DNA of 64,000 bases. Origin: Escherichia coli (lineage in GTDB: Bacteria; Pseudomonadota; Gammaproteobacteria; Enterobacterales; Enterobacteriaceae). The position numbers and the translations under genes were made by a program. The notes under the pieces were generated by a model. That model saw nothing but the letters and a program-made list of their open reading frames with translations, searched no databases and had not been told where the DNA came from. Below, in pieces: positions 33,605 through 40,986 of this stretch. Numbering within the stretch: the stretch's first letter is position 1; each line of letters opens with the position of its first letter. The stretch lies in NCBI RefSeq assembly GCF_002854065.1, contig NZ_CP024147.1. One strand, written 5' to 3'.

Positions 33605-33649
33605 TCCCGCCCACCCGACTGCCCATCTATTGATCCAGAACAGGTAATC

Positions 33650-33679
33650 AGTATGACGAATACTTAAAATCGTCATACT
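33650..33679 (+). promoter_or_regulatory. NikR operator in the nikA promoter
   Basis: GTATGA-N16-TCATAC dyad ~40 nt upstream of nikA ATG; a possible FNR half-site (TTGATccagAACAG) lies just upstream. Confidence 0.8.
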
Positions 33680-33715
33680 TATTTCCGCCATCTATTTTAA
33701 TCCATTGGGGTTACC

Positions 33716-36234: not shown

Positions 36235-39038
<2,804 letters not shown>

Positions 39039-39067
39039 GTTATTTCTGAAACGAGGAAAGAAAAGAT

Positions 39068-39104
39068 ATTAACTGAACTTAATTTATAAAATTAAGTTCA
39101 GTTG
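39068..39104. terminator. Perfect 13-bp inverted repeat between convergent nikR and hicB-like gene
   Basis: aactgaacttaat-N7-attaagttcagtt; T-rich flank on the minus-strand side. Confidence 0.5.
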
Positions 39105-39157
39105 CATAGATAGATCCTGTAAAGGCAGATATTCTGCGTAATGTACGCCGCTAAAAT

Positions 39158-39517
39158 TTATAAATGATTCAAACGCTCATTCAGTGTTTCAATAATATAG
39201 GTATTAACAGAGACTTGTTGCTGCGCAGCCGCATTATTAAGGCGTTCACTCAGCGATTCTGGATAGCGTAACGTAAAGGTCTTAATCTTTTCTGTACGCG
39301 CATACGGCTCAATACCCGCAGCTTTACAATCCTCAAGATACTCTCGCAGAGAAAGTTCCCCTTCTTTTTGCAGCCCCTGAATGCTGTCAGAGACAAAATC
39401 ACAATAACCTGACAAGCCCAGGAATTTGCCACGAAATGCATTCAGTTCTGGCACGTAAGTGATAACAGCAGGTTGCCCGGCAATCTCCATAGAGTTTGGC
39501 GTCTTCAGTTTGATCAT
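39158..39517 (-). CDS. HicB-family antitoxin (HicB-like N-domain + C-terminal ribbon-helix-helix)
   Basis: 119 aa; central FRGKFLGLSGYCDFVSDSIQGL...EPYARTEKIKTFTLRYPESL and C-terminal LSERLNNAAAQQQVSVNTYIIETLNERL fit the HicB pattern; overlaps toxin gene by 4 nt. Confidence 0.65.
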   Translation of the reverse strand: MIKLKTPNSMEIAGQPAVITYVPELNAFRGKFLGLSGYCDFVSDSIQGLQKEGELSLREYLEDCKAAGIEPYARTEKIKTFTLRYPESLSERLNNAAAQQQVSVNTYIIETLNERLNHL

Positions 39518-39789
39518 GGTTTTACCCCTATACTTAGTAACCAGTCACGCACGCTTTCTACAGCGCCTTTGTCGGTATCTGGCGACGGATGAGGCCGATG
39601 GAAACACGCAACGCTCATATTTAGTATGAACTTACAACGCGAACCTCTTCCTTCCTTAATTTCTCCGCCTAATGCTTTAACCAGTGACTCTATATCAGAC
39701 CACTTGATCCCTTGAGGAACAGGAGATTTAAATATTTGATCCAATGTATTTTTTTGTTTCTTCCGTAAAGCCTGTACCTTGGTTCTCAT
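39514..39789 (-). CDS. HicA-family mRNA-interferase toxin (YcfA-like)
   Basis: 91 aa; C-terminal ...GSRCKFILNMSVACFHRPHP...VESVRDWLLSIGV resembles HicA (KGSHxxF...P.HP...I...LG); N-terminal extension means the real start may be internal. Confidence 0.6.
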   Translation of the reverse strand: MRTKVQALRKKQKNTLDQIFKSPVPQGIKWSDIESLVKALGGEIKEGRGSRCKFILNMSVACFHRPHPSPDTDKGAVESVRDWLLSIGVKP

Positions 39790-39797
39790 GGCATGTC

Positions 39798-39851
39798 CTT
39801 ATGACTTCACTTTATGACATCAATAGTATGACATCACAGTATGAAGTCAAG
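39798..39851 (-). promoter_or_regulatory. Putative hicAB promoter/operator: four tandem ~13-bp repeats
   Basis: tatgacttca / tatgacatca / tatgacatca / tatgaagtca at ~13-bp periodicity in the 72-bp gap between yhhJ stop and hicA start. Confidence 0.4.
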
Positions 39852-39861
39852 TTTCCCTTCC

Positions 39862-40986
39862 TCACGCCATTGTCCCAATCGTCTTCCTGAATCGCAGCAG
39901 TGCGATGGTGAAAAACGCGCCGCCAATTGCCATCAGCGTCAGGAACTGCGGCCAGACGATTTCGAATCCGGCACCCCGGTAGAGAATGGCCTGCGCGAGG
40001 CTAACAAAGTGTGTCGTCGGCATGGTCAGCATAATGTCCTGCACCATCTGCGGCATACTTTCGCGCGGCGTGGAGCCACCGGAAAGCATTTGCAGCGGCA
40101 GCAGCACCAGAATCACCAGCAGCCCCAGTTGCGGCATTGAACGCGCTATCGTCCCCATAAAAATGCCGATTGACGTGGTGGCAAACAGACTGAGCGCCAC
40201 GCCCAGCATAAACAGCGGGATCGAGCCTTCAATCGGTACGCCCAGCACGCCTTTCACCATCAGCACCAGCGATAATCCCGATACCACCAGCACCACCAGC
40301 CCCATCGACCAGACCTTAGCCATCATGATCTCAAACGGCGTTATCGGCATCACCAGTAAATGTTCCACCGTGCCGTGTTCACGCTCGCGGATCAGCGCCG
40401 ATCCGGTCAATACAATCGCCAGCATGGTAATGTTGTTGATGATTGCCATCACCCCGCCAAACCACGCGGGATCAAGGTTCGGGTTAAAGCGCATCCGGGT
40501 TTCCAGCGATACCAACGGTTCGCTGTTATCGCGGTAGCGCGCGACAAAGCTGTTCACTTCACCGTTGATAATATTCTGGATATACCCGTTGCCGGTAAAT
40601 GCCTGGCTCATGCGCGTGGCATCGACGTTCACCTGAATATCTGGCTGGCGTCCAGCGAGGACATCACGCTGAAAATTAGGCGGAATATTTATCGCGAAGG
40701 TATAGCGTCCGGCGTCCAGTCCGGCATCCATCTCATCGGCGGTGATCATCTCCGGTGGCAAAAACCACGGGCGATAGAAGCTGTTAACGATCCGATTCGA
40801 TAACTGCGATTGATCCATATCGGCAATGGCGATCGGTGCCAGGTTCAACGATCCTGGCGTAACGGTCGCTGACGAATACACCGACACCGTAAACGAGAAG
40901 ACAATCAATGTCAGCATCGCTTTATCACCGAGTAGACTGCGCAACTCTTTGATACCCAGATTAAAAATATTGCGTAAATGGCGCAT
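39862..40986 (-). CDS. yhhJ: ABC-2 type transporter permease YhhJ
   Basis: ORF 39862..41070 trimmed to [30 protein letters not shown]...; start overlaps rbbA stop. Confidence 0.85.
   Translation of the reverse strand: MRHLRNIFNLGIKELRSLLGDKAMLTLIVFSFTVSVYSSATVTPGSLNLAPIAIADMDQSQLSNRIVNSFYRPWFLPPEMITADEMDAGLDAGRYTFAINIPPNFQRDVLAGRQPDIQVNVDATRMSQAFTGNGYIQNIINGEVNSFVARYRDNSEPLVSLETRMRFNPNLDPAWFGGVMAIINNITMLAIVLTGSALIREREHGTVEHLLVMPITPFEIMMAKVWSMGLVVLVVSGLSLVLMVKGVLGVPIEGSIPLFMLGVALSLFATTSIGIFMGTIARSMPQLGLLVILVLLPLQMLSGGSTPRESMPQMVQDIMLTMPTTHFVSLAQAILYRGAGFEIVWPQFLTLMAIGGAFFTIALLRFRKTIGTMA

Follow-up and report, generated by a model that had tools for sequence, protein, structure and literature searches.

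A perfect palindrome of 33 bases lies at positions 39071–39103 of the window (the whole stretch of Escherichia coli DNA that was analysed, 64,000 nucleotides), between the convergent genes nikR and hicB. Our preferred interpretation, which we hold with roughly even confidence, is that it is an intergenic stem-loop of an ordinary kind, restricted to the Escherichia lineage, which would act at the RNA level and mainly on the hicAB transcript, its perfect symmetry coming from fold-back or template-switch copying. Documented here are the structure of the element, the asymmetry between its strands, the strains in which it occurs and the ancestral gene adjacency at the locus; from these we infer that it terminates or stabilises the transcript, and how its perfect symmetry arose. 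The hairpin travels with neither nikR nor the toxin–antitoxin (TA) module, being absent both from strains without the TA pair and from island-bearing strains that carry it. In itself, as another intergenic stem-loop at a convergent gene pair, it is of little importance; the useful outcome is a corrected reading of the locus, in which HicAB beside nikR is an old, conserved neighbour in the Enterobacteriaceae and not a recent insertion.

The genes that flank the palindrome and the parts of the palindrome are as follows.
38637–39038, plus strand: nikR, the last gene of the nikABCDE-R cluster (gene calls and annotation).
39055–39070, minus strand: U-rich tail after the stem, AAUAUCUUUUCUUUCC (match of a terminator-like scan on the minus strand, and sequence).
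39071–39085, no strand assigned: left arm, AACTGAACTTAATTT, 15 nt, 100% complementary (sequence and inverted-repeat search).
39086–39088, no strand assigned: centre or loop, ATA (sequence, inverted-repeat search and folding).
39089–39103, no strand assigned: right arm, AAATTAAGTTCAGTT, 15 nt, 100% complementary (sequence and inverted-repeat search).
39158–39517, minus strand: HicB-family antitoxin gene (Pfam PF05534, E 2e-15).
39514–39789, minus strand: HicA-family toxin gene (Pfam PF07927, E 2e-9).

The nikR–hicB spacer is 119 bp long and lies between two convergent transcription units, with yhhJ and rbbA preceding hicA-hicB in the same orientation on the minus strand; the palindrome is found 32 nt past the nikR stop codon and 54 nt past that of hicB. 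As read from the sequence, it consists of two 15-nt arms and a 3-nt centre (39060–39110 reads gaaaagatat taactgaact taatttataa aattaagttc agttgcatag), and an inverted-repeat search returned it as the longest perfect inverted repeat of 22 in the 64-kb window. The original prediction had described an AT-rich hairpin with perfect 13-bp arms and a 7-nt spacer, aactgaacttaat-ttataaa-attaagttcagtt, between nikR and a convergent hicB-like gene. These arms are present as described, with pairing running 2 bp further inward on each side, and the gene coordinates and Pfam matches bear out the context; the span given, 39068–39104, encloses the palindrome but begins 3 nt early and ends 1 nt late. Folded as RNA, the palindrome reached −16.2 (plus strand) and −15.3 kcal/mol (minus strand), while shuffled sequences gave means of −3.6 and −2.9 kcal/mol, respectively (z −5.9 and −6.3). 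With z at about −6 and none of the 200 shuffles as stable, the stem-loop is more than a product of chance. An Rfam covariance-model scan of 38600–40000 gave chance-level matches only (E 3.6–7.2, far under the gathering scores).

Intrinsic terminators of E. coli have a short G+C-rich stem with a run of U directly after it. The stem of the palindrome departs from this composition, having G-C pairs at 3 of 15 positions and A-U/A-U at its base. A terminator consensus scan, run with lenient criteria, called a site on the minus strand only, where the stem is followed by AATATCTTTT; although the tail AAUAUCUUUUCUUUCC passes this lenient scan, its U-run is interrupted and offset, starting after AAUAUC. 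On the plus strand, the nikR sense, the sequence after the stem is GCATAGATAGATCC and no T-run was found there, and the A-rich tract on the 5′ side of the stem is the complement of the minus-strand U-rich tail. Since the pattern of a stem followed by a T-rich tail occurs on the minus strand only, the element appears to be oriented for the hicAB transcript. With three G-C pairs in 15 and a U-run that is interrupted and offset, it would be at best a weak, mainly one-directional terminator, or a stem protecting the 3′ end, for yhhJ-hicAB. By the norms of intrinsic terminators, an AT-rich stem with an interrupted tail would make a poor terminator, which counts against our preferred interpretation.

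Compared with the intrinsic terminators found between convergent E. coli genes, the palindrome is similar in forming a stem-loop soon after both stop codons, in having a U-rich tract on one strand and in its stability (about −15 to −16 kcal/mol for the palindrome), while it differs in its unusually long (15 bp), perfect and AT-rich stem and in a U-tract that is interrupted, offset and absent in the nikR sense. According to our preferred interpretation, the minus-strand transcript (yhiI-rbbA-)yhhJ-hicA-hicB would form the 15-bp stem and then the U-rich tail, and the stem-loop may serve the hicAB message as a weak factor-independent terminator, as a barrier to 3′ exonucleases or as both. In the other direction, the same stem could cap nikR read-through transcripts, there without a U-tract. 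Should the stem-loop indeed terminate or stabilise the hicAB mRNA, expression of the TA pair might differ among strains according to their spacers.

The 3′ end of nikR was present in 5425 of the 5426 complete E. coli genomes and the spacer with the hairpin in 1490 of them, about a quarter, and the idea that the hairpin is nikR's own terminator, accompanying nikR everywhere, was rejected on these counts. At least four forms of the nikR–yhhJ interval exist in E. coli.
Form A: nikR, the 119-bp spacer, hicB-hicA, yhhJ (for example this window, 55989 and XJ34).
Form B: nikR, an island of roughly 6 kb (GntR, PTS, FGGY kinase, HPr, aldolase), hicB-hicA, yhhJ (for example O157:H7).
Form B′: the island as in form B, followed by REP sequences and yhhJ, without hicBA (for example TUM2830).
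Form C: nikR, rhsB-yhhH-ISEc1(yhhI), REP, yhhJ, without hicBA (for example K-12 J53).
The nikR/island junction was found in 1638 genomes and the nikR/rhsB junction in 2126. The interval was already known to be variable, since it is listed (rhs locus 9) among the eleven rhs loci of E. coli by Jackson et al. (PMC2935791).

What all forms share reaches no further than 0–2 nt from the nikR stop codon at one end of the interval and the yhhJ stop codon itself at the other, and the K-12-type and island-type sequences likewise diverge 0–2 nt from the nikR stop codon. Forms A and B have in common the stretch that begins at the yhhJ stop codon, takes in hicA and hicB and ends 11 nt beyond hicB's own stop codon, homology to O157 resuming at 39147, so that the segment 39039–39146, palindrome included, is unique to form A. 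A comparison with K-12 and other strains had been proposed, an ordinary nikR terminator being expected downstream of nikR also where the TA pair is lacking. The hairpin is indeed absent from the TA-less K-12-type and B2-type strains, but with hicBA in 2074 genomes and the spacer in 1490, it is also absent from about 580 TA-bearing strains, those with the PTS island; because of these the hairpin is not a marker of the edge of the TA module. One assembly labelled E. coli DH5alpha (NZ_CM135829.1, 4.83 Mb) has the hairpin; K-12 derivatives have rhsB at this place, and the label looks doubtful.

The adjacency of nikR and hicBA extends beyond E. coli. In K. aerogenes and K. pneumoniae a convergent hicB (hicB-hicA in K. 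aerogenes) begins 27 bp after nikR, with a HicB protein identity of 82%, and the nikR/hicB-hicA adjacency was also found in an uncultured Klebsiella genome, in Enterobacter sp. JUb54 and in Citrobacter sedlakii, the last having the order yhhJ-hicA-hicB/nikR, which is that of form A. Because this adjacency is shared with Klebsiella, Enterobacter and C. sedlakii, the comparison of gene orders indicates that form A has the ancestral order and that K-12 and the island-bearing strains are derived, through later replacements by rhsB and, in O157 and B2, by the PTS sugar island. An ancestral TA pair next to nikR takes away the premise of the original prediction that the hairpin stands at the edge of a TA insertion and could be its scar. 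In the plasmid collection, K. pneumoniae pC17KP0052-1 has hicA absent or unannotated beside hicB, and several records with nik-hicBA resemble chromosomal fragments or whole chromosomes (‘plasmids’ of 4.8–4.9 Mb; also the 791-kb ‘plasmid 4’ of K. aerogenes).

Among 26 loci from species-representative genomes, the hairpin was confined to Escherichia, within which it also occurs in a separate GTDB species-level representative (L011). The spacers of Klebsiella, Enterobacter and C. sedlakii show no homology to that of E. coli, and the palindrome is absent from them. That of Klebsiella, 27 bp, contains no inverted repeat beyond a weak, imperfect one and folds at −9.7 kcal/mol (z −1.8), and a spacer with no convincing hairpin counts against our preferred interpretation of a role at the RNA level. 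The spacer of Enterobacter sp. JUb54 has a stable REP-like, G+C-rich stem of 12–13 bp, the whole spacer folding at −22.5 kcal/mol (nikR sense) to −27.6 kcal/mol (hicB sense), while that of C. sedlakii is REP-like and G+C-rich but folds no better than its shuffles (z 0.08).

Three further features of the E. coli spacer are as follows.
39039–39146, no strand assigned: form-A-specific spacer segment, 108 bp, single-copy (searches of the other forms, other genera, plasmids and viral contigs).
39125–39137 and 39136–39148, no strand assigned: two overlapping small palindromes with a 5-bp stem and a 3-nt loop, GCAGAtatTCTGC and GCGTAatgTACGC, respectively (sequence).
39147–39157, no strand assigned: 11 nt, GCCGCTAAAAT, separating the form-A-specific segment from the hicB stop codon; they are homologous to GCCGCTATA, the right arm of the hicAB terminator of island strains.
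The small palindromes vary among strains, the first in its loop and the second in its stem. In form B, hicB is followed by the hairpin TATAGCGGC-[CAACA...TGTTG]-GCCGCTATA, G+C-rich and with a folding energy of −19.6 kcal/mol, after which the minus strand reads TTTTTGTGG; by its sequence this is predicted to be the canonical hicAB terminator. The same canonical G+C-rich terminator was seen in O157:H7 Z1767 (L002, 3975–4010) and in Escherichia sp. E1V33. The 11 nt beside hicB in the window, GCCGCTAAAAT, are homologous to GCCGCTATAAG of form B, which means that only the right arm of the form B terminator survives here (39147–39157), as an orphan arm. Since a 9-bp arm match is unlikely by chance, the form B type of hicAB terminator is probably the older one, and the A-specific segment would have replaced its left arm and left the orphan arm behind. 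In one metagenome contig (L056), the A spacer is joined to B-type bases beside hicB.

With the canonical hicAB terminator reduced to an orphan arm, the AT-rich stem is the sole sizeable hairpin left downstream of hicB in form A. The O157:H7-type terminator (TATAGCGGC...GCCGCTATA followed by TTTTT) stands in the same place with respect to hicB, presumably with the same role, but it differs from the palindrome in being G+C-rich, with a branched stem of 9+5 bp, a canonical U-run and an unrelated sequence. Most of the arrangements examined have a hairpin of their own, unrelated in sequence, after nikR, after hicB or after both: in form B, GCGCCGUUA...UGACGGCGC after nikR (−18 kcal/mol) and the hairpin plus TTTTT after hicB (−19.6 kcal/mol), and in form C (K-12) a hairpin after nikR (−16 kcal/mol), with Klebsiella and C. 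sedlakii as the exceptions. This recurrence points to what may be a generic need for a stem-loop at this place and not to a sequence-specific function.

The perfection of the arms may be explained without any such function. E. coli has an excess of perfect inverted repeats, which are also conserved beyond expectation, the proposed cause being correction by template switching (PMC5941160), and template switching, a mechanism experimentally established in E. coli, turns imperfect palindromes into perfect ones (PMC7202029). A single fold-back copying event would likewise yield a perfect palindrome with a 3-nt centre. Since template switching or fold-back can explain the perfection, no special function is required, and according to our preferred interpretation the symmetry would have come from the copying of one arm and not from selection. 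The palindrome resembles the perfected quasipalindromes of these studies (PMC7202029, PMC5941160) in being a short perfect inverted repeat with a minimal loop, to which the variant G39104A adds one pair; it differs from them in that template switching is here deduced with no imperfect precursor, none having been found for this palindrome.

If the copying explains the symmetry, it might also explain the whole element. A tentative alternative, possible but less probable than a role in the hicAB message, is that the palindrome is a functionless by-product of fold-back (snap-back) synthesis or template switching during remodelling of the spacer, kept as young and harmless. Its perfect arms and 3-nt centre would be expected from fold-back copying (mechanism in PMC7202029), and it sits in a known variable site, rhs locus 9 (PMC2935791). 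The segment that holds it, 39039–39146, has no homologue anywhere searched: in a remote-homology test by short-word blastn and by Smith–Waterman alignment with shuffles, it was compared with the PTS-island flanks, with the rhsB junction and with the other genera's spacers, and nothing rose above chance (p 0.24–0.96), except for the 11 nt beside hicB. At its right boundary the segment cuts the older terminator hairpin, leaving the orphan arm, and the palindrome matches a canonical terminator poorly.

The low diversity of the spacer is consistent with a recent origin too. Among copies, differences amount to 0–4 of 119 nt in the spacer and 1–12 of 360 nt in hicB, against 7–23 of 402 nt in nikR and 26–57 of 807 nt in nikE. 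This mosaic of divergence implies, on the aligned copies, that recombination breakpoints probably flank the spacer–hicB block, and the uniformity of spacer and hicB indicates mosaic recombination and what appears to be a comparatively young spacer haplotype. In the same comparison (window 38637–40986 with L037–L069, L008 and L011), hicA differs at 19 of 262 positions in many contigs and hicB often at 1–3 of 360. Of about 1495 carrier genomes, 1486 have the 33-mer with 100% identity and about 10 have changes at one to three of its positions, while the common polymorphisms of the spacer fall at 39048 (G/A), 39055 (A/C), 39104 (G/A), 39131–39132 and 39144 (T/C/A). Statistically, the 33-mer is no more than marginally less variable than the remainder of the spacer, and the metagenome contigs had been chosen on exact arms. 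Since the whole of the spacer and hicB is unusually uniform, the invariance of the hairpin is not readable as selection on the hairpin; low spacer diversity would be expected of a young recombining haplotype no less than under selection. The RS571 haplotype has arms of 16 bp, its G39104A being complementary to T39070. In the same strain, E. coli RS571 (L008, 3476–3751), hicB is intact and hicA has an internal stop, its annotation being that of a pseudogene. Against a by-product stand the recurrence of some hairpin here in most arrangements and genera examined, the orientation of the U-rich tail, which fits the hicAB sense, and the retention of the palindrome in 1490 genomes of diverse lineages, including the GTDB species-level representative L011.

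A true bidirectional terminator, ending transcription of both nikR and hicAB, was the simplest reading offered in the original prediction, and we now consider it unlikely. The hairpin is about equally stable on both strands and lies between convergent genes, with an A-rich tract upstream and a T-rich tract on the complementary side, and a terminator is plausible on the minus strand. The bidirectional part did not hold: a bidirectional terminator has an A-tract before and a U-tract after its stem, while here the A-rich tract is on the 5′ side only, the plus strand continues into GCATAGATAGATCC without a T-run, the scan matched the minus strand alone and the stem is AT-rich, with 3 G-C pairs of 15.

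That a dimeric DNA-binding protein (HicB, NikR or a nucleoid protein, for example) recognises the palindrome found no support and is very improbable, although the perfect two-fold symmetry and AT-richness of the palindrome would suit such a protein. The hicB product has a HicB/Arc-like domain of the ribbon-helix-helix type (Pfam), and NikR is a DNA binder of the same type. The palindrome is located where the two genes end, without an adjacent promoter, and it has no GTATGA/TCATAC half-sites, unlike the region upstream of the nik operon, where the inverted repeat GGTAATCAGTATGACGA/TCGTCATACTTATTTCC ahead of nikA (33643–33686) contains GTATGA-N16-TCATAC, which we take to be a match to the NikR operator. 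It is also unlike the TATGAC(A/T)TCA repeats of the hicA promoter region, and it is present in a single copy per genome and lacking from the island strains with hicBA and from all other genera. In that region (39790–39861, minus strand, upstream of hicA), a promoter-like TTGACT-16-TACTAT at 39850..39823 is overlapped by three TATGAC(A/T)TCA repeats and by the inverted pair TGACTTCA/TGAAGTCA; these repeats are probably the autoregulatory operator of HicB.

At the DNA level, an AT-rich palindrome might be a fragile or extrusion-prone site, forming a cruciform or a hairpin in replication, that helps to make the nikR–yhhJ interval a hotspot of insertion and replacement (rhsB, the PTS island, IS1), an explanation that we consider highly unlikely. 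The only direct hint comes from one strain, E. coli A30 (L007, NZ_CP092500.1, 4046–4060), in which IS1A has inserted at, or right beside, the palindrome's centre, after ...CTTAATT (39084), and the stretch from the right arm through hicBA, yhhJ and rbbA up to yhiN is deleted. No half-palindrome is retained at the rhsB or PTS-island junctions, so neither arose by insertion into the palindrome.

That the palindrome is a scar or terminal structure of hicAB insertion, or the end of another mobile element, is scarcely credible and already largely refuted: it does lie in strain-variable DNA beside the TA pair, and the 7-nt direct repeat AGATATT occurs at 39064–39070 and 39127–39133, but the nikR/hicBA adjacency common to Klebsiella, Enterobacter and C. 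sedlakii leaves no recent TA insertion to be scarred, the sequence common to all hicBA-bearing E. coli stops 11 nt past the hicB stop codon, short of the hairpin, terminal inverted repeats are lacking, no genome has a second copy, and plasmids and viral contigs gave no match. As a target-site duplication AGATATT was rejected, there being no inverted termini and a 7-nt repeat being expected by chance in 119 AT-rich bases.

A repeated or mobile element (REP/BIME, MITE) was also rejected, only one locus having been found across the 5426 E. coli genomes, plasmids, viral contigs and metagenome contigs. By blastn, the 33-mer and the 119-bp spacer occurred at one locus per genome in 1496 genomes, an apparent second place of the 33-mer in some of them being the palindrome matching itself on the opposite strand. 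Neither spacer nor 33-mer matched any viral contig, and the full-length spacer matches in the plasmid collection were two E. coli records of chromosome size (4.8–4.9 Mb). All 33 of the 33 metagenome contigs with the arms had them in the nikR–hicB context. Like REP/BIME sequences, the palindrome is an intergenic palindromic element filling a spacer after convergent genes, and REP-type sequences occupy the equivalent spacers of C. sedlakii and Enterobacter sp. JUb54 and, in K-12 and B2 strains, the DNA downstream of yhhJ. Unlike the palindrome, which is AT-rich, perfect and single-copy, REP elements have G+C-rich, imperfect sequences and number hundreds of copies. Elsewhere in the spacer, 39128–39140 matches the nikR coding sequence at 38736–38748 exactly over 13 nt (GATATTCTGCGTA; E 0.2 in a small database), probably by chance.
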